A DNA stretch of 49,011 nt from a virus: the UHGV virus genome UHGV-1353889; one strand, written 5' to 3'. Below, in pieces: positions 3,545 through 49,011 of the stretch. The notes below the pieces were generated by a model, which ran no database searches, had not been told where the DNA came from, and was given only the letters and a program-made list of their open reading frames with translations. Within the stretch, counting starts at the first letter, position 1; the number at the start of each line of letters is the position of its first letter. The position numbers and the translations under genes are program-made.

Positions 3545-3708
3545 TGGTTGCCTCCTTTGCGCCACATCGCATTCAGATATTTGTTTTGATTTACTGATGG
3601 AAAAGAATTTCTCTTAAGTAATTCCTCTCTCGATGGCATTGGCTTTACGCGTTGGCGAATAATCATTTCTGCCGGAAGAATGCCGGGATTGTATGCAAGT
3701 CCTCTCAT
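3541..3708 (-). CDS. Small conserved protein (55 aa), hypothetical
   Basis: Manual translation [55 protein letters not shown]; near-identical copy at 44091..44258; below the 60-aa cutoff of the ORF track. Confidence 0.45.
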
Positions 3709-3724
3709 GGTAAATTCCTCTTTG

Positions 3725-4039
3725 TTAATTTATTCGTATGCCTGTTCTCTCTTCATCGAGTTTTTTTAGCTTGTATCGCATAGCTCTCACTGAATAAATT
3801 GAGCGGCAGGTTGCAATTGCTATTTCTTCTGCGGAGAACTTACCGAAAAGTGATACTTCGGCTCTTGTCCAGCGTCTTCCACGAAGTCGGCTAACAATGT
3901 CAGCGCCAATCCTTGTTGCTTTCGCCATTACTGCTTTTTCAGTCCTTTCCAGTTTTTCAGCGATAACTTCAACTGGCATTGTCGCCGCTACTTCGCGTAA
4001 GAAATCGACTTCCCATTTCTCCCAAGGAGTCTTTTTCAT
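3725..4039 (-). CDS. Conserved phage protein, putative DNA-binding (two HTH-like segments)
   Basis: 104 aa; near-identical paralogue at 44553..44867. Confidence 0.45.
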
Positions 4040-4050
4040 AGGCGATACCG

Positions 4051-4539
4051 TTATTTGATAAGAAGTGAAGGTTTCCCAACTTTGAGTTGAGCACCGGGGA
4101 TATTTATTCCTGCTTTTAGTTGGTGTTTGATTGCCAGTTTGTCGGCTTTAATTGTCGTTTCGAACTCAACGTATTCAGGAGGAAGGGCGCTTGAGTCGAT
4201 GATTTCTACAGTTTCTGACGGTTTGCGGATTGTTACCTGGTGAATACCTGCTCGAATCTTTTTCTTTCCAACCATTTCAAGCGATGACGCTATATACGTC
4301 ATAATGCTATCAATCTTATTTTGAATTACTGCTGCTCTTTCATTCAGTGACTTTGCCTCTTCCTTGAGGCGTTCAGCATAACCAGACTCATTTTTAATGA
4401 TGGCAAGAAGTTGCTCTATTTTATCGGTAAATTCTCCTTCCATGCCTTCTATTGTGTCAGCAATCATCTCTGGTTCTAAATCTGAATCCATCAATTTTGC
4501 GTATTCATTGGCAATTTCATACAGTTTGCTCACTGGCAA
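4051..4539 (-). CDS. Gp157-like protein (Sipho_Gp157 family, tentative)
   Basis: 162 aa acidic coiled-coil protein directly downstream of the RecT-family gene, the usual partner position; identical copy at 44879..45367. Confidence 0.5.
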   Translation of the reverse strand: MPVSKLYEIANEYAKLMDSDLEPEMIADTIEGMEGEFTDKIEQLLAIIKNESGYAERLKEEAKSLNERAAVIQNKIDSIMTYIASSLEMVGKKKIRAGIHQVTIRKPSETVEIIDSSALPPEYVEFETTIKADKLAIKHQLKAGINIPGAQLKVGKPSLLIK

Positions 4540-5428
4540 CCTCCAGTTTCGCTTTGCATTCTATGTAAATGGCTTGTACGTTCTGCTGCAATTTCATTCC
4601 AGATGTCAGGCGATATGCTTCTGCAAAATATCGCTTCAAATCATCCATGTTTTCTGCCTGAGCCATTTCATCACAAAGAAGTTGTGCTTTATCCGTTATT
4701 TCCTGCTGGCGTTTCCGTTCATCTTCGCGGATATCTTCCTCTGATTTGTGCGGCATAACTGGTTCAGTCCACACACCTTCTTCTTCGTTTAGTACGTGAA
4801 TAGCACTATCAAGACGTGATGCCTTAGGCCAATACTTGCTTGCACGCTTTACGACCGTCTTTCGCGCCATCTCATTCCAGTGATTTACCCATGGTCCTTT
4901 ATCGCTGAATGCCGCCTTGCTTGTTTTCCTTACAGCCTCAATTTCAGCCAGACTCATCTCTTCCGTTAGATAATCACCTGCTGGCGTCTTAACTGTGCAG
5001 TAAACGCCAACGATATCACCACGATCACCGAAGGCGTTGTATTTATGGGTTGGTGCTTTATCAAGCCCGTTTGACTCATAGGTATCGTTAGCATGAACAA
5101 GTTTTGCCTGACCCCATGAGATAACACCAGACTCCATTGCAATATGGAGCAATCCCATATAGCTGATATCAAGGCAAACCATGCCGTCGCGCGGAACCAG
5201 ATAAGCCAGTTTGCTAGCCGGGTTTAAGGTGATGCCGATCGCCGCAACATTGATGATGGCGTTCTGTGCGCTGGTTGGATTTGCCAGTGCCGTTTTAGCC
5301 AGGTAATCATTTTTCTGGAAATACTGAATTGCAAACTGGCTTTCCTTAGCCCATGTCACCGTCTGTTCAGTCAATGCTCCGCAGAATAACTGCTCCTGCT
5401 GTTTAACGAATTCAACGATATTGCTCAT
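4517..5428 (-). CDS. RecT-family single-strand annealing recombinase
   Basis: 303 aa; segment GPWVNHWNEMARKTVVKRASKYWP parallels the RecT core GPWVTHWEEMAKKTAIRRLFKYLP; identical copy at 45345..46256. Confidence 0.75.
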   Translation of the reverse strand: MSNIVEFVKQQEQLFCGALTEQTVTWAKESQFAIQYFQKNDYLAKTALANPTSAQNAIINVAAIGITLNPASKLAYLVPRDGMVCLDISYMGLLHIAMESGVISWGQAKLVHANDTYESNGLDKAPTHKYNAFGDRGDIVGVYCTVKTPAGDYLTEEMSLAEIEAVRKTSKAAFSDKGPWVNHWNEMARKTVVKRASKYWPKASRLDSAIHVLNEEEGVWTEPVMPHKSEEDIREDERKRQQEITDKAQLLCDEMAQAENMDDLKRYFAEAYRLTSGMKLQQNVQAIYIECKAKLEVASEQTV

Positions 5429-5736
5429 GCTGCTTCTCCATAAATGTGTCTGCGTTTGAATATTGCGAAGGCATATTCAGCCTTAACTCTTTCGGTTATT
5501 GCATCCCAGAACCATTCAGCGGCTTTTTCCTGATAGTTACAGTCATCATCTTCCAGCCAGTCGATAGCGTCCTTAGTGTGTTCATCTGGTTTATATGAGC
5601 GAAGCATTTCGCTTATTGGGTCGCAACGTTTGCAGAGACGATCAACTTCACTGTTGATTCGTTCGTAATCTTCATCAGTAAAACTTGCGATAATTTGCGA
5701 TATTTCACGCTTATCATTCAGAGTCAGAATCATCAT
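5425..5736 (-). CDS. Hypothetical early protein
   Basis: 103 aa, start overlaps RecT-family gene stop; copy at 46253..46564 with one substitution. Confidence 0.45.
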   Translation of the reverse strand: MMILTLNDKREISQIIASFTDEDYERINSEVDRLCKRCDPISEMLRSYKPDEHTKDAIDWLEDDDCNYQEKAAEWFWDAITERVKAEYAFAIFKRRHIYGEAA

Positions 5737-5817
5737 CTTTCTCCTGTTCTTTGTGCTGATTGAGCATTTTGTTCATCTGACGAATGAATTCTTCGTCTGA
5801 CCAGTTATCTGTAAAAC

Positions 5818-5988
5818 TCATGGGCGGCCTTGTTGTTTCAAAATATCCCAAAGCTTTTCGAGCAAGCTTTTCATTCTTGGTTGTTTAAAGTCTGCTCCGG
5901 TTAAAATATTTTTTCGTGAATGCTGTACCGATAAAATCGGGTTGAAAGGGCGAACCGATGCCGCCCCTGCAATAGCGAACTGTTGCAT
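5818..5988 (-). CDS. Small hypothetical protein (56 aa)
   Basis: ATG at 5986-5988 preceded by AAGGAG; the track's longer 5818..6093 ORF is probably over-extended. Confidence 0.35.
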   Translation of the reverse strand: MQQFAIAGAASVRPFNPILSVQHSRKNILTGADFKQPRMKSLLEKLWDILKQQGRP

Positions 5989-6018: not shown

Positions 6019-6221
6019 AAAACGCCTCGAGTGAAGCGTTATTGGTATGCATATAAAAAGGCCCTCACACTGGAGGGCAAAGAAGATTTCCAATAATCAG
6101 AACAAGTCGGCTCCTGTTTGGTTACGAGCGACATTGCTCCGTGTATTCACTCGTTGGAATGAATACACAGTGCAGTGTTTATTCTGTTGTTTATGCCAAA
6201 AGAAGGCCGACTATGCGGCCT
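6019..6221 (-). terminator. Cluster of hairpins including two intrinsic terminators (tL-like region of the leftward operon)
   Basis: Minus-strand hairpins at 6204-6221 (AGGCCG..CGGCCT followed by U-run) and 6061-6078 (GCCCTC..GAGGGC followed by U5), plus further hairpins at 6019-6038 and 6144-6170. Confidence 0.5.
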
Positions 6222-6262: not shown

Positions 6263-6526
6263 TTATGATGGAATGTACAAAACCTCTTTCCAGTTCATAG
6301 AAGTGGATGATGGCATAAAATAATCCCACGACTCGTTAGCTACTAACTCTTTATTAACTGTGGTGGCAGCAATTTCGGCACCACCTTTATTATTAAAAAT
6401 GTCGTTCGAATACTGACATTTTCCATCTGCATGCACATATAAAATATCATATGTCTCTGTATCGTAATCACCACTTATGTCTCTGATAACAATTCCTGGC
6501 TTCAATGATTTAATTTTCTTGTCCAT
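6263..6526 (-). CDS. Hypothetical protein
   Basis: 87-aa ORF immediately downstream of N on the pL transcript. Confidence 0.4.
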   Translation of the reverse strand: MDKKIKSLKPGIVIRDISGDYDTETYDILYVHADGKCQYSNDIFNNKGGAEIAATTVNKELVANESWDYFMPSSTSMNWKEVLYIPS

Positions 6527-6534
6527 ATATCACC

Positions 6535-6861
6535 TCAAATAAGTGGTTTGCAGCCTAATTTCATTTTCTGGCGACCAACACAAGTCACCCCCATTTCACT
6601 GCGTGGCTTGCTGTACCATGTGCGCTGATTCTTGCGCTCAATACGTTGCAGGTTGCTTTCAATCTGTTCGTGGTATTCAGCCAGCACCGTAAGGTCTATC
6701 GGATTCAGTGCGCTTTCTACTCGTGATTTCGGTTTGCGATTCAGCGAGAGAATAGGGCGGTTAACTGGTTTTGCGCTTACCCCAACCAACAGGGGATTTG
6801 CTGCTTTCCATTGAGCCTGTTTCTCTGCGCGACGTTCGCGGCGGCGTGTTTGTGCATCCAT
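6535..6861 (-). CDS. N: Antitermination protein N (lambda-type)
   Basis: Arginine-rich motif MDAQTRRRERRAEKQAQWKAAN and the remainder match lambda N as I recall it; the track ORF 6535..6993 is an upstream over-extension. Confidence 0.85.
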   Translation of the reverse strand: MDAQTRRRERRAEKQAQWKAANPLLVGVSAKPVNRPILSLNRKPKSRVESALNPIDLTVLAEYHEQIESNLQRIERKNQRTWYSKPRSEMGVTCVGRQKMKLGCKPLI

Positions 6862-7090
6862 CTGGATTCTCCTGTCAGTTAGCTTTGGTTGTGTGTGGGA
6901 GTCGTAGTCCTGAACGAAAACACCCCGCAATGGCACATTGGCAGCTAATCCGGATTCGCACTTCCGGCCAATGCTTCGTTTCGTATCACACACACCAAAG
7001 CCTTCTGCTTTGAATGCTGCCCTTCTTCAGGGCTTAATTTTTAAGAGCATCACCTTCATGGTGGTTAGTGCGTCCTGCTGATGTGTTTAG

Positions 7091-7345: not shown

Positions 7346-8251
7346 TCAATGCTTATTTGGGAGTGCTGGTTTTTTTATCGACTCTAATAGCTCGGAGGCG
7401 TTACTAATCTTTTTGTTCCCAAGGTAATTTGGCAGTTTTTCCATTGCGTAATTATCGTGTAGCCATTTTCTGAACACGCCAAGTGCCTCAATAGGATAAA
7501 TCCAAGCTGTTATATGCTTATTTGCAGCTGACTGCCTGTAATTTTCGGGGAATAGATGTTGGTACTGCACCCTTTCCCCGAATTTCTCAGATAGCCTATT
7601 AGCTGTCCAATACTTTCCCCAGTGAATTCCAACACTTCCATCCAAAGATGTGGTGTCATCCATTGGGAATCCTCCTCCGATCAGGTTCATGGCAATGTCA
7701 GCTATCTCTCTGAATACTGCAAAATGAGTTGTCGGTATCTGATCGTTTAGCTTAATCCTTGCTCTATAGTTCTCGAATGAGATATCTATTGAAGCATTTG
7801 GGTTGTAATTTGACTTTTCATAAATCATTCGCTTAAGCGTGTACTCAGCCAAGCGAACAAAATTACCTATTGCGACTGACCTATCAAAATTGGTGGCATC
7901 TAGAGCGTAGTAACGGAGGATAGCCATGCAAACATAGTCAGGATAAGCATGAGTTTCCACGTTTGAGCTATTTATAACGCGAGTGTATAGCTTTTCGACG
8001 TTATGAAACCCTTTCTCAGCTAAATACGCAGCTACTTTTTGACCTCTGGGTTTGTTTTTCTCTGTGTTCCAGTTTGATGTGAACACCCTCAGTGGCGTGT
8101 CATCAATGCCGCATAACTTTGCGAGACCGTAGAGAGTTAGGTAAGGAGTTCCATCATTGAGAACGCCCATAGGAATATCATCAGAAACAACCTCTACTAC
8201 AGGGAAAAGCTGCATTTGATGCAGGGATTCGCTATTGCTGTTAATCGACAT
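7346..8251 (-). CDS. Uncharacterized 301-aa protein in the rexA/rexB position (candidate lysogen-expressed exclusion gene)
   Basis: Same strand as and immediately downstream of cI, followed by a terminator; no confident family assignment from reading. Confidence 0.6.
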   Translation of the reverse strand: MSINSNSESLHQMQLFPVVEVVSDDIPMGVLNDGTPYLTLYGLAKLCGIDDTPLRVFTSNWNTEKNKPRGQKVAAYLAEKGFHNVEKLYTRVINSSNVETHAYPDYVCMAILRYYALDATNFDRSVAIGNFVRLAEYTLKRMIYEKSNYNPNASIDISFENYRARIKLNDQIPTTHFAVFREIADIAMNLIGGGFPMDDTTSLDGSVGIHWGKYWTANRLSEKFGERVQYQHLFPENYRQSAANKHITAWIYPIEALGVFRKWLHDNYAMEKLPNYLGNKKISNASELLESIKKPALPNKH

Positions 8252-8337: not shown

Positions 8338-9054
<717 letters not shown>

Positions 9055-23528: not shown

Positions 23529-24422
23529 ATGGACCAGATGGCAGAAAACACACCAGAAGTTGAAATCGAAACCGACGCGTCAGAGCAGATTCCTGATGAT
23601 GTCGAACTGGCTGAAGAAGTCGAAACAGAAGATGGCAGTGAGTCCTCCGGTAATGATGCAGAGGAAGCTACTGAAACTGATGACGACGAATCAAAACAGG
23701 AATTCTACTTTGGTGACGAAAAGCTGGATTCGCCAACCAGCGAAGATGGAGCTGAGCATGGACTGGTAAAACACTTGCGCAAGACGATTAAAGAGAAAGA
23801 CCGCGAGCTGAAAGAGCTGATGCGTCAGTCTCAGAAACCCGTCGAGCAGCAGCCGGTAATCACTCAACCACCGCGAATGCCAAAACTGGACGATGAGGAC
23901 ATCGGTTTCGATGAAGAAATCTACCAGCAACGCATGGCTAAGTGGGCAGAGGATAACGGCAAGTACCAGCAACAGGAGATGGCTCGCAAGCAGAAGGAGC
24001 AGGAGCTTCAGGCTGCCTATCAAGATCGATTATCCAAATATCAGCAACGTGTTAAGGCTCTCAAGGTTCCTGGCTATCAGGAAGCAGAACAGGCCGTACT
24101 CGAGGAAATCCCCATCGAGACACAAAACGCGATCCTGTTTGAGTCAGAGAAGCCGGAAATCGTTGTTCTGGCACTCGGTCGCAACGCTGAACTGCGCAAG
24201 CAACTGGCAGAAGCTACCAACCTCGTAGCAATTGGTCGTCTGCTGGAACGTATCGAATCGAAGGCCAGAATCATGCCAAAAGCAAAAACCACGGCAGCCA
24301 CAACCCCGACAGTTAAGGGGAGCAACGGCGCAGTAATCAACAACCTAGACAAATTGAAAGCCAAGGCGCTGGAAACTGGTGACTGGACGCCGTATTTCGC
24401 CGCTAAAAAGGCAAAAAAATAA
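23529..24422 (+). CDS. Scaffolding protein
   Basis: 297 aa, highly charged helical protein between portal and coat. Confidence 0.6.
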   Translation: MDQMAENTPEVEIETDASEQIPDDVELAEEVETEDGSESSGNDAEEATETDDDESKQEFYFGDEKLDSPTSEDGAEHGLVKHLRKTIKEKDRELKELMRQSQKPVEQQPVITQPPRMPKLDDEDIGFDEEIYQQRMAKWAEDNGKYQQQEMARKQKEQELQAAYQDRLSKYQQRVKALKVPGYQEAEQAVLEEIPIETQNAILFESEKPEIVVLALGRNAELRKQLAEATNLVAIGRLLERIESKARIMPKAKTTAATTPTVKGSNGAVINNLDKLKAKALETGDWTPYFAAKKAKK

Positions 24423-40240: not shown

Positions 40241-40360
40241 AGGCTTTGTGCTCTTCGATAGTTGTTAAGGCGGATCACTCTACCTTCTCATCAATCCAGT
40301 CCGCCCACCACTGCATCATTTCTCTGCGCTTATCGAGATACTGAGCATGGTTGTAAATTC
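40241..40360. repeat. Right copy of 120-bp direct repeat (integrase 3'-end fragment)
   Basis: 118/120 identical to 1-120; encodes last ~28 codons of integrase with an in-frame stop just upstream. Confidence 0.8.
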
Positions 40361-44258: not shown

Positions 44259-44536
44259 GATTTACTCTCCACGAACTGGTCAATAGCCATGCTAAGTGAT
44301 ACACCTAAAGTCTCGATATGCTGCTGAATATCCTGTAGCGTCTGCGCCTGAGATAACAGGATTTCACGGTTGCATAACTCTTTGACCAGATGCTCAAACT
44401 TGCTGTAATAACCGATACGGCTTAGTGTTTCTTTCCCTGCATTCTCACCTTCTTTGATAATTCCTCTTTCATTAAGAATCAGGTCGTGTTTTGTTCCAGT
44501 AATAACGTATTTACCGAGGTCGATGTTTAGCTTCAT
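44255..44536 (-). CDS. Hypothetical protein (insertion relative to element 1)
   Basis: 93-aa ORF present only in element 2 between the 55-aa and 104-aa genes. Confidence 0.4.
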
Positions 44537-44552
44537 TGTTAATTACTCCATG

Positions 44553-44867
44553 TTAATTTATTTGTATGCCTGCTCTTTTTTCATCGAGTTTTTTTAGCTT
44601 GTATCGCATAGCTCTTACTGAATAAATTGAGCGGCAGGTTGCAATTGCTATTTCTTCTGCGGAGAACTTACCGAAAAGTGATACTTCGGCTCTTGTCCAG
44701 CGTCTTCCACGAAGTCGGCTAACAATGTCAGCGCCAATCCTTGTTGCTTTCGCCATTACTGCTTTTTCAGTCCTTTCCAGTTTTTCAGCGATAACTTCAA
44801 CTGGCATTGTCGCCGCTACTTCGCGTAAGAAATCGACTTCCCATTTCTCCCAAGGAGTCTTTTTCAT
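44553..44867 (-). CDS. Conserved phage protein, putative DNA-binding (copy of 3725..4039)
   Basis: 104 aa, 3 substitutions near C-terminus relative to element 1. Confidence 0.45.
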   Translation of the reverse strand: MKKTPWEKWEVDFLREVAATMPVEVIAEKLERTEKAVMAKATRIGADIVSRLRGRRWTRAEVSLFGKFSAEEIAIATCRSIYSVRAMRYKLKKLDEKRAGIQIN

Positions 44868-44878
44868 AGGCGATACCG

Positions 44879-45367
44879 TTATTTGATAAGAAGTGAAGGT
44901 TTCCCAACTTTGAGTTGAGCACCGGGGATATTTATTCCTGCTTTTAGTTGGTGTTTGATTGCCAGTTTGTCGGCTTTAATTGTCGTTTCGAACTCAACGT
45001 ATTCAGGAGGAAGGGCGCTTGAGTCGATGATTTCTACAGTTTCTGACGGTTTGCGGATTGTTACCTGGTGAATACCTGCTCGAATCTTTTTCTTTCCAAC
45101 CATTTCAAGCGATGACGCTATATACGTCATAATGCTATCAATCTTATTTTGAATTACTGCTGCTCTTTCATTCAGTGACTTTGCCTCTTCCTTGAGGCGT
45201 TCAGCATAACCAGACTCATTTTTAATGATGGCAAGAAGTTGCTCTATTTTATCGGTAAATTCTCCTTCCATGCCTTCTATTGTGTCAGCAATCATCTCTG
45301 GTTCTAAATCTGAATCCATCAATTTTGCGTATTCATTGGCAATTTCATACAGTTTGCTCACTGGCAA
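44879..45367 (-). CDS. Gp157-like protein (copy)
   Basis: Identical to 4051..4539. Confidence 0.5.
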   Translation of the reverse strand: MPVSKLYEIANEYAKLMDSDLEPEMIADTIEGMEGEFTDKIEQLLAIIKNESGYAERLKEEAKSLNERAAVIQNKIDSIMTYIASSLEMVGKKKIRAGIHQVTIRKPSETVEIIDSSALPPEYVEFETTIKADKLAIKHQLKAGINIPGAQLKVGKPSLLIK

Positions 45368-46256
45368 CCTCCAGTTTCGCTTTGCATTCTATGTAAATGG
45401 CTTGTACGTTCTGCTGCAATTTCATTCCAGATGTCAGGCGATATGCTTCTGCAAAATATCGCTTCAAATCATCCATGTTTTCTGCCTGAGCCATTTCATC
45501 ACAAAGAAGTTGTGCTTTATCCGTTATTTCCTGCTGGCGTTTCCGTTCATCTTCGCGGATATCTTCCTCTGATTTGTGCGGCATAACTGGTTCAGTCCAC
45601 ACACCTTCTTCTTCGTTTAGTACGTGAATAGCACTATCAAGACGTGATGCCTTAGGCCAATACTTGCTTGCACGCTTTACGACCGTCTTTCGCGCCATCT
45701 CATTCCAGTGATTTACCCATGGTCCTTTATCGCTGAATGCCGCCTTGCTTGTTTTCCTTACAGCCTCAATTTCAGCCAGACTCATCTCTTCCGTTAGATA
45801 ATCACCTGCTGGCGTCTTAACTGTGCAGTAAACGCCAACGATATCACCACGATCACCGAAGGCGTTGTATTTATGGGTTGGTGCTTTATCAAGCCCGTTT
45901 GACTCATAGGTATCGTTAGCATGAACAAGTTTTGCCTGACCCCATGAGATAACACCAGACTCCATTGCAATATGGAGCAATCCCATATAGCTGATATCAA
46001 GGCAAACCATGCCGTCGCGCGGAACCAGATAAGCCAGTTTGCTAGCCGGGTTTAAGGTGATGCCGATCGCCGCAACATTGATGATGGCGTTCTGTGCGCT
46101 GGTTGGATTTGCCAGTGCCGTTTTAGCCAGGTAATCATTTTTCTGGAAATACTGAATTGCAAACTGGCTTTCCTTAGCCCATGTCACCGTCTGTTCAGTC
46201 AATGCTCCGCAGAATAACTGCTCCTGCTGTTTAACGAATTCAACGATATTGCTCAT
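45345..46256 (-). CDS. RecT-family single-strand annealing recombinase (copy)
   Basis: Identical to 4517..5428. Confidence 0.75.
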   Translation of the reverse strand: MSNIVEFVKQQEQLFCGALTEQTVTWAKESQFAIQYFQKNDYLAKTALANPTSAQNAIINVAAIGITLNPASKLAYLVPRDGMVCLDISYMGLLHIAMESGVISWGQAKLVHANDTYESNGLDKAPTHKYNAFGDRGDIVGVYCTVKTPAGDYLTEEMSLAEIEAVRKTSKAAFSDKGPWVNHWNEMARKTVVKRASKYWPKASRLDSAIHVLNEEEGVWTEPVMPHKSEEDIREDERKRQQEITDKAQLLCDEMAQAENMDDLKRYFAEAYRLTSGMKLQQNVQAIYIECKAKLEVASEQTV

Positions 46257-46564
46257 GCTGCTTCTCCATAAATGTGTCTGCGTTTGAATATTGCGAAGGC
46301 ATATTCAGCCTTAACTCTTTCGGTTATTGCATCCCAGAACCATTCAGCGGCTTTTTCCTGATAGTTACAATCATCATCTTCCAGCCAGTCGATAGCGTCC
46401 TTAGTGTGTTCACCTGGTTTATATGAGCGAAGCATTTCGCTTATTGGGTCGCAACGTTTGCAGAGGCGATCAACTTCACTGTTGATTCGCTCGTAATCTT
46501 CATCAGTAAAACTTGCGATTATTTGCGATATTTCACGCTTATCATTCAGAGTCAGAATCATCAT
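46253..46564 (-). CDS. Hypothetical early protein (copy of 5425..5736)
   Basis: 103 aa with one substitution; track ORF 46253..46672 is an artificial read-through across the N gap. Confidence 0.45.
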   Translation of the reverse strand: MMILTLNDKREISQIIASFTDEDYERINSEVDRLCKRCDPISEMLRSYKPGEHTKDAIDWLEDDDCNYQEKAAEWFWDAITERVKAEYAFAIFKRRHIYGEAA

Positions 46565-46574
46565 CTTTCTCCTG

Positions 46575-46603
46575 NNNNNNNNNNNNNNNNNNNNNNNNNN
46601 NNN
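46575..46603. other. Assembly gap (29 N)
   Basis: Run of N characters. Confidence 1.
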
Positions 46604-46946
46604 TTTGTTCATCTGACGAATGAATTCTTCGTCTGACCAGTTATCTGTAAAACTCATTTCCTGCGATACCATGGAAGGTTGATAGCTGATTTCATCGCTT
46701 TATTTGCTTCAAGCCACATTTTTGAATCACCAATAAATCGGGCTATTACTGCTTTGTTTTGTGCAGCACGAAGCATCTGGTGATTAATGGCTATTTCATT
46801 GCGCATAATAAGACCTCAACTCTTTTCCATCCGTCACGTAATTTACGGGTGATTCGTTCAAGTAAAGATTCATTTAGTTGGAAGGCACCCATGCGAGCGC
46901 CTCCCGCGATTGCGTAAATCATGGGTGGTTCCTTATGTTGGTTTTA

Positions 46947-47915
46947 TTAGTAGGTTATTTTTGTTGCGAATACTTCGCCTTTTACGATGGCTGTTATGAT
47001 ATTTTTAGCAACATCTTCTGATGCGCCAACCTTGATAAGGTCAGCAAGTATTTTGTTATTTACGTCTTTCCGGTGAGCCTTATCCTTTGCTCTACGCTCT
47101 TCTTCGTCCTTGATTCTTTTTTCTTCTGCTATTCTGGCTTGCTCTTTTGCTTCAGCCTCGCGACGGATTCGTTCAGCCTCCTCCTGTGCTTTTCTGCGTT
47201 CTACTTCAATTGCTGCCTGCTTTTCTCTTTCAGCTCGTTCTGCTGCCTCTTTTGCTTCGCGCTGTGCTCGTTGCTCGGCTTCAATGCGTTCACGCTCTGC
47301 ACGCTCCGCTGCGGCCTTAGCTTCTGCTTCTCTCCTTGCTGCTGCTTCAATGTCGGCTTTTGCCTTTGCTTCGGCTTCTGCTCTGGCTTTCTCTTCAGCT
47401 TCTCTTTTTAAGCGGTCTTCATGCTCTCGCTTTTCCTGCTCCTCTTTGAGTCTTGCCTCTTCTCTTTGTCGGTCAAATTCGCGATCCATCAAAATCGCTA
47501 TTTCATGGTCAGACTCAATTTGCTTTGCGAGAGCTTCAGCTGCTGCCTTAGCTTCTTCTTCGGCTTTAATCCGCGCCTGTTCTTCCTCATAATCAGTAAG
47601 AGGCTGGCGTGCCTTGGCTTTCAGCTCATCAAGTCGATCACGCACTGTTTTGCGGTTGGCATCAATTAGCTTTGGAATTTCCTTCAGTTCAGCAACAAGG
47701 TCTTTGCCAAGACCATCGAGATATGTTTTCGTCTGCGCAACTTTATACGCCAGAGAAGCGATCTCCTTTCTGCCCTTTGCCGTTGTGATATCAGGCACAA
47801 AGGACATAACTTCACTTTCAACCTTTTGAAGGATTTCTTCAATCTGGTCGGCAGACTGAAATACAGTCATTGCATTTGCTTTTTCAATAACAACTAAATC
47901 TGTTACTTCACTCAT
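46947..47915 (-). CDS. Hypothetical protein with long Glu/Ala/Arg/Lys-rich coiled-coil region
   Basis: 322 aa; globular N-terminal ~120 aa then ~170 aa EAR-rich repeat; plus-strand ORFs in this span are low-complexity artefacts. Confidence 0.5.
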   Translation of the reverse strand: MSEVTDLVVIEKANAMTVFQSADQIEEILQKVESEVMSFVPDITTAKGRKEIASLAYKVAQTKTYLDGLGKDLVAELKEIPKLIDANRKTVRDRLDELKAKARQPLTDYEEEQARIKAEEEAKAAAEALAKQIESDHEIAILMDREFDRQREEARLKEEQEKREHEDRLKREAEEKARAEAEAKAKADIEAAARREAEAKAAAERAERERIEAEQRAQREAKEAAERAEREKQAAIEVERRKAQEEAERIRREAEAKEQARIAEEKRIKDEEERRAKDKAHRKDVNNKILADLIKVGASEDVAKNIITAIVKGEVFATKITY

Positions 47916-47949
47916 ATATCCTCCTTCGTTGTATTCTTTAAAAACGCTC

Positions 47950-48318
47950 TCAGGCGGCTTTGATAGTCATATCATCTGAATCAAATATTCCTGATGTATC
48001 GATATCGGTAATTCTTATTCCTTCGCTACCATCCATTGGAGGCCATCCTTCCTGACCATTTCCATCATTCCAGTCGAACTCACACACAACACCATATGCA
48101 TTTAAGTCGCTTGGAATTGCTATAAGCAGAGCATGTTGCGCCAGCATGATTAATACAGCATTTAATACAGAGCCGTGTTTATTGAGTCGGTATTCAGAGT
48201 CTGACCAGAAATTATTAATCTGGTGAAGTTTTTCCTCTGTCATTACGTCATGGTCGATTTCAATTTCTATTGATGCTTTCCAGTCGTAATCAATGATGTA
48301 TTTTTTGATGTTTGACAT
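47950..48318 (-). CDS. Acidic hypothetical protein
   Basis: 122 aa, Asp/Glu-rich C-terminal half. Confidence 0.45.
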   Translation of the reverse strand: MSNIKKYIIDYDWKASIEIEIDHDVMTEEKLHQINNFWSDSEYRLNKHGSVLNAVLIMLAQHALLIAIPSDLNAYGVVCEFDWNDGNGQEGWPPMDGSEGIRITDIDTSGIFDSDDMTIKAA

Positions 48319-48468
48319 CTATTCATATCCTCATAGATAAAAAATCGCCCTCACACTGGAGGGCAAAGAAGATTTCCAATAATCAGAACAAGTCGGCTCC
48401 TGTTTAGTTACGAGCGACATTGCTCCGTGTATTCACTCGTTGGAATGAATACACAGTGCTTATTCGTA

Positions 48469-48939
48469 CTAATAAAACACCCAATTTTCTGTTTCTTGGT
48501 TGTGTCCAAAGTTATATTCAATATCTGGTGTTGATGTATCAATATTCTTCATCCCATCAACAAGAGTTGATACAACAGCCAAATCTTGTTTGATTCTCAT
48601 CAAATGGTATTTCTTCCGGCGCAATAAACTTTCAATGGCAAGTTTCTTCGTCGGGAATGCAAAAGATCTTTCTGCATTTTTTGCTACTTTCTTAATTGCA
48701 TATCTATTTCTCCTTTGTTTCCATTCCTGTAACCACAGATTTGGTGCTGGTTTAAAATTAACAATCCAATGCGCAGGAACCAACCATGCATAATGCTCTG
48801 TCTGATGAAAAGCTATATATTGAAGTGCGAATATTTTGATTCCATCTTCTTCAACTGTCGCTTGGAATCTCCAGAAAACAGGCATTCCATCATGTTCAGT
48901 TTCTGATTCAGGAAAAGGTACGCTCCATGATTTTGTCAT
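48469..48939 (-). CDS. Hypothetical protein (moron inserted within tL-like hairpin cluster)
   Basis: 156 aa; flanked by sequence that is contiguous in element 1 (6061-6221), insertion bounded by CAGTGC. Confidence 0.5.
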   Translation of the reverse strand: MTKSWSVPFPESETEHDGMPVFWRFQATVEEDGIKIFALQYIAFHQTEHYAWLVPAHWIVNFKPAPNLWLQEWKQRRNRYAIKKVAKNAERSFAFPTKKLAIESLLRRKKYHLMRIKQDLAVVSTLVDGMKNIDTSTPDIEYNFGHNQETENWVFY

Positions 48940-49011
48940 ATCTCACCTCAAATAATTCAGTGCAGTGTTTATTCTGTTGTTTATGCCAAAAGAAGGCCGA
49001 CTATGCGGCCT

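Follow-up and report, generated by a model that had tools for sequence, protein, structure and literature searches.

The window analysed here is a stretch of 49,011 nucleotides of viral DNA, and its last part belongs to element 2; according to the ORF list, every ORF in this segment lies on the minus strand. Three ORFs of 322, 122 and 156 amino acids were confirmed, and together with two smaller genes and the sequences between them they make up the following features, given in the numbering of the window:

46654-46806, minus strand: kil, 50 aa, host cell-division inhibitor peptide (PF06301, E=1.7e-20; phrog_2055, E=1.2e-35)
46791-46922, minus strand: cIII, 43 aa, FtsH-inhibiting lysogeny factor of the Sf6 gene 32 type (PF02061, E=4e-15; phrog_550, E=1.6e-20)
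46947-47915, minus strand: gene for a 322-aa protein of the Sf6 gp33 / D3 Orf53 family (phrog_1376, E=5e-109; annotation of Sf6 gene 33)
47950-48318, minus strand: ea10, 122 aa, lambda early protein Ea10, DUF2528 (121/122 residues identical to lambda NP_040621)
48339-48426, minus strand: homologue of the sRNA LPR1/PreS, about 88 nt, with the tL2a hairpin (48366-48345) and a U-tract at its 3' end (lambda identity, terminator scan)
48347-48459, no strand assigned: equivalent of the "bsq4 boundary sequence" of Sf6, the right end of which is the insertion junction
48427-48454, minus strand: middle hairpin with a 12-bp stem, directly 5' of PreS and without a U-tract (RNA fold)
48460-48957, minus strand: single-gene cassette of 498 bp (GC 0.357) with the 156-aa ORF (48469-48939), 933W L0079 family, phrog_1636
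48958-48963, no strand assigned: CAGTGC for the second time; from here the lambda-like spacer continues (blastn overlap, junction comparison)
48984-49011, minus strand: terminator-like hairpin, AGGCCGCATAGTCGGCCT plus UCUUUUGG, downstream of an unseen upstream gene and cut at the window end (terminator scan)

In the direction of transcription, the order is therefore terminator-like hairpin, 156-aa gene, hairpin, PreS/LPR1 with tL2a, ea10, the gp33-type gene, cIII, kil and the RecT module. The window stops at 49011 within the upstream hairpin, so that the next gene upstream in element 2 falls outside, and positions 46575-46603 are a masked run of 29 N. The initial annotation had overlooked kil and cIII, which are located in 46600-46947. 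Their layout matches genes 31 and 32 of Sf6, the name kil is also carried by the annotated relatives, and the "56-aa ORF" of element 1 is another cIII (phrog_550). The three larger genes had been presented as uncharacterized, but they are not new: they represent three long-sequenced families, lambda Ea10, 933W L0079 and Sf6 gp33, and the parts of the segment entered GenBank with the sequences of these three phages.

The spacer upstream of ea10 is identical to the ea10-ral intergenic region of lambda in 123/123 nt. What had been described as a "hairpin cluster" is, judged by its sequence, this lambda region with the terminator tL2a and the Hfq-dependent sRNA LPR1/PreS. In lambda, LPR1/PreS is an Hfq-binding RNA of about 88 nt that has its 3' end at tL2a, appears only during lytic growth and raises dnaN (bioRxiv 10.1101/2024.10.31.621285). 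In the window the PreS/tL2a locus sits immediately upstream of ea10, 21 nt (48319-48339) from its start, and folds with a z-score of -5.1; the 5' end given above follows from the published length. An Rfam search of the region gave no match, and PreS has no Rfam family. The middle hairpin takes the hexamer CAGTGC (48454-48459) into its base, and its sequence is the same in lambda, in element 1 and in every relative examined. In element 1, the upstream terminator-like hairpin (6194-6221) adjoins the PreS region without interruption. The 156-aa gene had been placed between terminator hairpins, and two of the three hairpins (48366-48345 and 49011-48994) are indeed terminator-like on the transcribed strand, but the middle one (48454-48427), lacking a U-tract, is not. 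The bsq4 feature of Sf6 (24156-24268) stops exactly where its homology to the window stops, at 48459, and base 6173 is where homology to the element 1 spacer ends in many E. coli matches. Moreover, the modules flanking bsq4 differ among lambda, Sf6, 933W, phi367, an ST131 prophage and S87. The supposed hairpin cluster is thus an sRNA/terminator locus that doubles as a conserved recombination boundary for module exchange between lambdoid phages.

It is at this boundary that the cassette with the 156-aa gene lies. Comparing element 2 with element 1 by blastn, 48337-48459 corresponds to 6051-6173 (96.7%) and 48958-49011 to 6168-6221 (100%), and the two element 1 matches overlap by the hexamer 6168-6173, CAGTGC. 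The early observation that CAGTGC is found on both insertion boundaries was therefore correct, with copies at 48454-48459 and 48958-48963 flanking the 498-bp insert; identity of a 6-mer at a fixed position is expected by chance with a frequency of ~1/4096. A comparison of the locus across related prophages, which had been proposed as a check, revealed a left junction that is identical in all five relatives examined and two types of right junction, one after N and one within the spacer. The spacer type is present in ~60 genomes vs 598 genomes with the gene. The 156-aa module appears usually to sit right after N, an arrangement seen in 933W and H-19B. For the CAGTGC on both sides, the simplest explanation would be a scar left by a single illegitimate or microhomology joint, after which the spacer-type arrangement would have spread via homologous recombination in the flanks. 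Two specific mechanisms were considered, and neither is established. A crossover of a 933W-type with a lambda-type phage at a CACT microhomology should have left GCACTTATTTGAGG at the right junction, whereas GCACTGAATTATTTGAGG was observed, with four extra bases. For a transposon-like insertion, the only terminal inverted repeat of the cassette is TTATT, which is not significant in AT-rich DNA and gives such a mechanism no support.

The individual parts differ in how common they are. Among 5,426 complete E. coli genomes, 2,166 contain the PreS/bsq4 spacer, 1,479 ea10, 598 the 156-aa gene and 508 the N-terminal part of the 322-aa gene, and the whole arrangement is found in 83. The description of the locus as a variable slot is borne out; gene presence differs across these genomes as well as between elements 1 and 2. 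The genes are accessory, with patchy counts, yet are kept as intact ORFs: members of the 156-aa family have 156-163 aa with 55-99% identity in five or more genera of Enterobacterales. The operon recurs in other genera; in Rosenbergiella the order is 158aa-...-323aa-...-RecT, and in Pectobacterium and Brenneria the gene is located just upstream of xis-int. Ea10 is dispensable in lambda, and the patchy distribution suggests the same for the 156-aa and 322-aa proteins. Furthermore, dozens of E. coli genome sequences contain the arrangement of the segment at 98-99.8% identity, and the three genes, which are very common early genes, belong to medically relevant Stx and ST131 prophages.

Three named phages are the closest known comparisons. 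Lambda shares gene order and strand in kil-cIII-ea10-tL2a/LPR1(PreS)-ral (NC_001416 33187-34287), with an Ea10 that is 99% identical and a 123-nt tL2a/PreS spacer that is 100% identical to element 2, and lambda shows the CAGTGC-AGTGTTTATTC junction without the insert. It differs in that cIII and ea10 are direct neighbours and the spacer is free of genes, with ral following directly after the spacer, and the kil and cIII alleles of element 2 are of the Sf6/HK97 type, unlike those of lambda. The early-left order of 933W (AF125520) is N-L0079-ssb/ea10-cIII-kil-gam-bet-exo; here the cassette is 98.4% identical at the nucleotide level, and the junction at its downstream end, where the PreS/tL2a spacer and ea10 follow, is the same. 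However, in 933W the gene abuts N with neither an upstream terminator nor a second CAGTGC, the 322-aa gene is lacking, and Red (exo/bet/gam) is present instead of RecT. In Sf6, genes 31-34 (AF547987) comprise kil-cIII-gp33(322 aa)-tL2a/bsq4 with 97.7% identity, "tL2A" and "bsq4" are annotated, and the insertion junction found here falls on the right end of bsq4, but ea10 is missing and gene 34 (140 aa) fills the slot to the right of bsq4. The gene content of the segment is thus seen to vary between the phages compared.

No sigma-70-like promoter of its own was found on the coding strand upstream of the 156-aa gene in any of the three sequences scanned (the window, strain S87 and 933W), using a simple match to the sigma-70 consensus that weak or activator-dependent promoters could escape. 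The gene is preceded by an RBS, GAGGTGAGATATG. Co-orientation and the absence of own promoters suggest that all genes of the segment would be transcribed from pL after induction or infection, and, by analogy with lambda, N-modified RNA polymerase would read through tL2-type terminators. We consider it probable that this stretch forms the accessory part, distal to N, of a lambdoid prophage's early-left (pL) operon and carries dispensable early accessory genes. It is a real but ordinary mosaic of parts already known from lambda, 933W and Sf6, and the value of the result lies mainly in correction and little in discovery.

Within this segment, the 156-aa protein offers the most room for a new function. 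It is basic (pI 9.07), and the AlphaFold (AF2) model of the L0079 family (pLDDT 95.5) consists of an antiparallel beta-sheet and a long basic helix. The model had no structural neighbour in the PDB, a profile of the protein gave nothing significant against PDB sequences, scans with Pfam, NCBIfam and PADLOC remained without a match, no membrane or secretion signal was detected, and a literature search for L0079 found nothing. Structural relatives span many phages, all of them uncharacterised, including Erwinia phiEa2809 and Achromobacter phiAxp-3; a tblastn search with one distant relative returned a single Vibrio phage, whose gene neighbourhood was uninformative, and the wider family (phrog_1636, 13631 and 25384) extends to phages of Erwinia, Achromobacter, Rhizobium, Delftia, Tenacibaculum and Cellulophaga. 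Because of its basic charge, the combination of beta-sheet and basic helix and the lack of a membrane or secretion signal, our best guess is that the protein might be a dimeric early protein that binds nucleic acid or a host factor and acts in host takeover or counter-defence. The L0079-type protein could represent a novel type of early factor for host takeover or counter-defence that works via nucleic-acid or host-protein binding. As a smaller possibility, PreS may arise by processing from the 3' end of the L0079 mRNA, and the two would then be coupled, since in 598 E. coli genomes the 156-aa gene is found directly 5' of PreS. Taken as a whole, a new early factor with, secondarily, PreS coupled to its mRNA is a tentative reading, possible but rather improbable. 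A high-confidence model without a structural neighbour nevertheless makes the protein a reasonable target for functional screens.

For Ea10, DNA mimicry or anti-restriction had been proposed. The protein is acidic, as had been claimed, with a pI of 4.28 and a net charge of -14 in the pI and charge analysis, and is thus small and strongly acidic like a DNA mimic, in contrast to the basic 156-aa protein. Ea10, and perhaps the other two proteins as well, might accordingly serve in counter-defence, with Ea10 as an acidic DNA mimic directed against type I R-M or BREX, like Ocr or ArdA. In line with this, it is an abundant early protein (PMC3961180) and lambda ea10 is non-essential in a CRISPRi screen (PMC10695390); ea10 adjoins ral in lambda, and elsewhere the slot is occupied by ral or by a gene for "Nmad5 nucleotide modification". 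However, none of the three proteins shows homology to a known anti-restriction family. Ea10 matches PF10800 (E=1.3e-46, 104/104 model positions covered), but nothing except DUF2528 was found in Pfam, no NCBIfam or PADLOC model matched, no PDB sequence match was significant, and the sequence is unrelated to Ocr, ArdA and every other named family. Known DNA mimics differ from Ea10, in which about residues 50-68 make up a helix of strong hydrophobicity (KD 2.05), and an older annotation has the protein as a putative ssDNA-binding protein. Moreover, the three proteins are missing from the supplements of two screens of accessory genes for counter-defence, and lambda's restriction alleviation is credited to ral, which is a different, neighbouring gene. 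The idea goes back to acidity and neighbourhood, and we regard a counter-defence role of this kind as unlikely.

Still less probable is the classification of the 156-aa gene as a moron, with which the locus had originally been labelled. The moron concept is said to stem from Juhala et al. 2000 and the phages HK97/HK022. A true moron would be autonomous, bracketed by terminators, expressed from the repressed prophage and of benefit to the lysogen, e.g. by superinfection exclusion or defence like sieB/rexAB. As in morons of lambdoid phages, one extra, variably present gene with sharp boundaries and lower GC is seen here: the 498-bp insert lies between sequences that are adjacent in element 1 and lambda, both of which lack it, so that presence or absence is a precise single-gene polymorphism, and its GC of 0.357 is well under the 0.441 of the early-left arm. 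Hairpins flank the gene on both sides, and pL neighbourhoods of lambdoid phages do hold defence genes expressed in the lysogen, such as BstA in element 1 and sieB in lambda. A similarly low GC is also found in ea10 (0.388) and in the 87-aa gene of element 1 (0.352). However, no terminator was carried along with the gene, since both flanking hairpins are already contiguous in uninserted lambda and element 1 and are therefore part of the recipient sequence rather than of the inserted piece. In contrast to known morons, the terminators thus lie outside the insert, no own promoter was detected, and the gene, which has an RBS only, is co-oriented with pL inside an antiterminated early operon. In 933W-type phages, apparently the majority context, it directly follows N without a terminator in between. 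Furthermore, PADLOC offers no support for a defence function, and the structural relatives are distributed over a wide range of uncharacterised phages, some of which may be virulent, which would be hard to fit with a benefit for the lysogen. The moron label is therefore not supported, and a true moron at this position is very unlikely.

As part of the same pL segment, the 322-aa protein consists of an N-terminal domain (residues 1-115), a coiled coil (residues 116-280) and a small C-terminal domain. The long EAR-rich coiled coil noticed at first was confirmed, with E/A/R/K making up 79% of residues 116-280. More than 6,800 homologues of 245-333 aa are found in Enterobacterales prophages. The full protein had no match above threshold in Pfam, NCBIfam or PADLOC; its isolated N- and C-terminal domains and 15 distant relatives of the N-domain gave only sub-threshold coiled-coil noise in Pfam, and an N-domain profile gave nothing significant against PDB sequences. 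A suspected likeness of the N-domain to DUF1351 (PF07083) was dropped because neither the isolated domain nor the 15 relatives matched it even at E<=10. Many database records name the family "cell envelope biogenesis protein TolA" or "colicin import membrane protein", and the E/A/K-rich helical region resembles TolA domain II, but a TolA-like cell-envelope protein is extremely improbable and effectively refuted by the sequence, as there is no transmembrane segment for a membrane anchor (maximum 19-residue hydropathy, KD19, of 1.03), no Pfam TolA match for domain III, and conservation sits in the N- and C-terminal domains, outside the repeat, which varies in length. The "TolA" label is thus a low-complexity artefact, and newer RefSeq records already rename the family "coiled-coil domain-containing protein".

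The window contains the early-left arms of two lambdoid prophages, here called element 1 and element 2, and in the part of element 2 under study (46600-49011) every sizeable ORF lies on the minus strand. The initial annotation had described this part as a variable slot with three genes, and its ORFs of 322, 122 and 156 amino acids were recovered, whereas kil and cIII had been overlooked. The locus is variable, as observed there, and it is already known: it is a mosaic segment of long-sequenced gene families (lambda Ea10, 933W L0079, Sf6 gene 33), so that the three genes, called uncharacterized there, are not new, and of a recently characterised sRNA and terminator. The relevant features of both elements are:

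46654-46806, minus strand, kil, 50-aa ORF with family match
46791-46922, minus strand, cIII, 43-aa ORF with family match
46947-47915, minus strand, 322-aa ORF
47950-48318, minus strand, 122-aa ORF
48366-48345, minus strand, terminator tL2a (terminator scan)
48454-48427, minus strand, 12-bp hairpin
48469-48939, minus strand, 156-aa ORF
49011-48994, minus strand, second terminator-like hairpin (terminator scan)
6263-6526, minus strand, element 1, 87-aa gene directly after N (phrog_33140, GC 0.352)
7346-8251, minus strand, element 1, BstA abortive-infection defence gene (PADLOC PDLC02356, E=7.7e-106)

The end of the window cuts the upstream hairpin, and the next gene of element 2 lies outside it. 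In blastn comparisons of element 2 with element 1, both share a RecT module of 2,042 bp with 99.3% identity (44533-46574 = 3705-5746) and a short stretch at 46604-46657 (= 5768-5821), followed by sequence without similarity up to 48337. The 56-aa ORF of element 1, correctly reported before, turned out to be a cIII as well. Similarity resumes at 48337-48459 (= 6051-6173, 96.7%) and 48958-49011 (= 6168-6221, 100%). Since these last two matches overlap in element 1 at 6168-6173, which reads CAGTGC, a 498-bp piece (48460-48957), here called the cassette, breaks a continuous sequence and has the hexamer on either side, exactly as originally described. The 2,042-bp stretch is in direct orientation and covers the Gp157-like gene, RecT and a 103-aa gene, and the integrase-proximal ends of both prophages match as well (1-120 = 40241-40360). 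Both repeats are substrates on which the two prophages could recombine. Between kil and the 103-aa gene, 29 consecutive N (46575-46603, masked or unresolved) fall within the spacer and small ORF and create an artificial fused ORF of 139 aa in ORF listings.

The hairpins noticed earlier are real, but their identity had been missed: the cluster aligns base for base to the lambda ea10-ral intergenic region with tL2a. In lambda, this spacer encodes an Hfq-dependent sRNA of ~88 nt, LPR1, renamed PreS, which ends in tL2a, is produced in lytic growth only and increases both the translation of dnaN and the replication of phage DNA (2024 preprint, 10.1101/2024.10.31.621285). The window has two PreS loci, one per prophage (6051-6173 and 48337-48459). 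Over 123 nt the copy in element 2 matches lambda at every base; in that of element 1 a single base of the body is substituted and the U-tract is shorter (CCTTTTTAT rather than CGATTTTTT). Compared with shuffled controls, the spacer RNA has a much stronger fold (z about -5), and Rfam has no model for PreS. If PreS has the length published for lambda, it would run from about 48426 to 48339; the cassette lies 28-33 nt upstream of this 5' end and past the 12-bp hairpin, so that the sRNA itself is untouched.

The GenBank record of Sf6 labels the same block "terminator, homology to lambda tL2A" and "bsq4; boundary sequence", and the right end of bsq4 corresponds exactly to 48459, the CAGTGC junction. 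To the right of it follow ral in lambda, gene 34 and ral in Sf6, L0079 and N in 933W, L0079 and ral in phi367, L0079 and an Nmad5-family gene in an ST131-type prophage, and L0079 and an 87-aa gene resembling that of element 1 in strain S87, which bears out the variable slot. About 902 E. coli genomes match the uninserted element 1 spacer across the full lambda-like junction, and many other matches end at exactly base 6173. The junction recurs as a module boundary, as has been discussed for lambdoid phages under the boundary-sequence model (see the summary in PMC3233612). Of 5,426 complete E. coli genomes, 2,166 carry the PreS spacer, 1,479 ea10, 598 the L0079 gene, 508 the N-terminal part of the 322-aa gene and 83 the entire arrangement; this prevalence marks all three genes as accessory.

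The left junction of the cassette (CAGTGC/TTATTCG) is the same in five of five relatives examined, whereas two types of right junction exist. In type A (933W, vB_EcoP-683R2) the RBS region is joined directly to N at its end (CAAATAAGT/GGTTTGCTGCC), a junction also found behind N of element 1, before its 87-aa gene. In type B (window, ST131, phi367, S87) it leads back into the lambda-type spacer (CAAATAATT/CAGTGCAGTGTTTATT). About 60 genomes have type B, compared to 598 with the 156-aa gene, and most cassette matches stop two bases before the right end, which is what a junction other than type B would give. Type A is taken as the usual and probably older context; type B would then be a single illegitimate joint, which recombination in the flanks spread later on. 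The joint does not read as a simple crossover of the two parental sequences examined. The 87-aa gene of element 1 has the same junction and RBS (ACTTATTTGAGGTGA.ATATG) as the 156-aa gene behind N in 933W, which suggests that another variable slot lies directly behind N.

A moron had been proposed, and the sharp single-gene indel and its low GC (0.357 versus 0.441) fit this. However, no coding-strand promoter of the 156-aa gene was detected in the window or in two relatives, both flanking hairpins belong to the recipient sequence according to the lambda comparison, the homologue in 933W comes straight after N, and the gene is co-oriented with the operon. Homologues also lie inside early-left operons, in Rosenbergiella with neighbours as in element 2, and in Pectobacterium and Brenneria just upstream of xis-int. 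On these grounds we read the gene as an accessory part of the pL operon under N antitermination, from which, by analogy with lambda, it would be expressed. Overall, neither the moron reading nor the proposed anti-restriction role gained support from the tests applied, and Ea10, the 156-aa and the 322-aa protein are absent from the supplements of two screens of phage accessory genes.

The 122-aa protein is lambda Ea10 (121/122 residues identical; PF10800/DUF2528, E=1.3e-46 in Pfam), which is abundant among lambda early proteins (PMC3961180) and non-essential in a CRISPRi screen (PMC10695390). It is acidic overall, as stated before, but its central helix is strongly hydrophobic and no relation to known DNA mimics was found in Pfam or PDB sequences, which speaks against the suggested DNA mimicry. 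Residues ~50-68 form a 19-residue stretch (SVLNAVLIMLAQHALLIAI) with a Kyte-Doolittle mean of 2.05, a value that would suit either a membrane helix or one buried in the core. The 322-aa protein belongs to the Sf6 gene 33/D3 Orf53 family (phrog_1376) with >6,800 homologues in Enterobacterales prophages, 245-333 aa long and varying in the E/A/R/K-rich middle. The label "TolA", common for this family, was rejected, as it reflects only this low-complexity middle, with neither membrane anchor nor Pfam domain. Nothing named matched the 322-aa or the 156-aa protein in Pfam, NCBIfam, PADLOC or PDB sequences.

The 156-aa gene is a homologue of 933W L0079 (98.4% DNA identity), present in 82 phage records, chiefly Stx phages. 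A profile search of 1.8 billion representatives gave 86 relatives, most of 130-155 aa, with the common motif K..K...RFAF.TK..A...L..RK..QL.HLKR.L; the PHROGs holding the family are all of unknown function. The AlphaFold model built with this alignment (pLDDT 95.5, pTM 0.83) consists of long antiparallel strands (19-30, 33-46, 50-55, 83-86), a pair of short helices and one of 33 residues (98-130), and a structure search in BFVD returned only uncharacterised proteins of diverse phages. With a pI of 9.07 the protein is basic, and it lacks hydrophobic segments; our best guess is that it could be a dimeric early factor binding nucleic acid or a host protein. Common, conserved, confidently folded and structurally unmatched, the L0079 family is the one item deserving follow-up.

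In element 1, bstA lies between a lambda-type cI (8338-9051) and N (6535-6993), at the position of rexAB in lambda, and the ST131 relative has the same layout. ST131-type relatives carry, between the cassette and N and just upstream of the cassette, a gene annotated "Nmad5 family putative nucleotide modification protein" (L001 8396-9019 in NZ_AP046539), a candidate for another counter-defence occupant of this operon segment.
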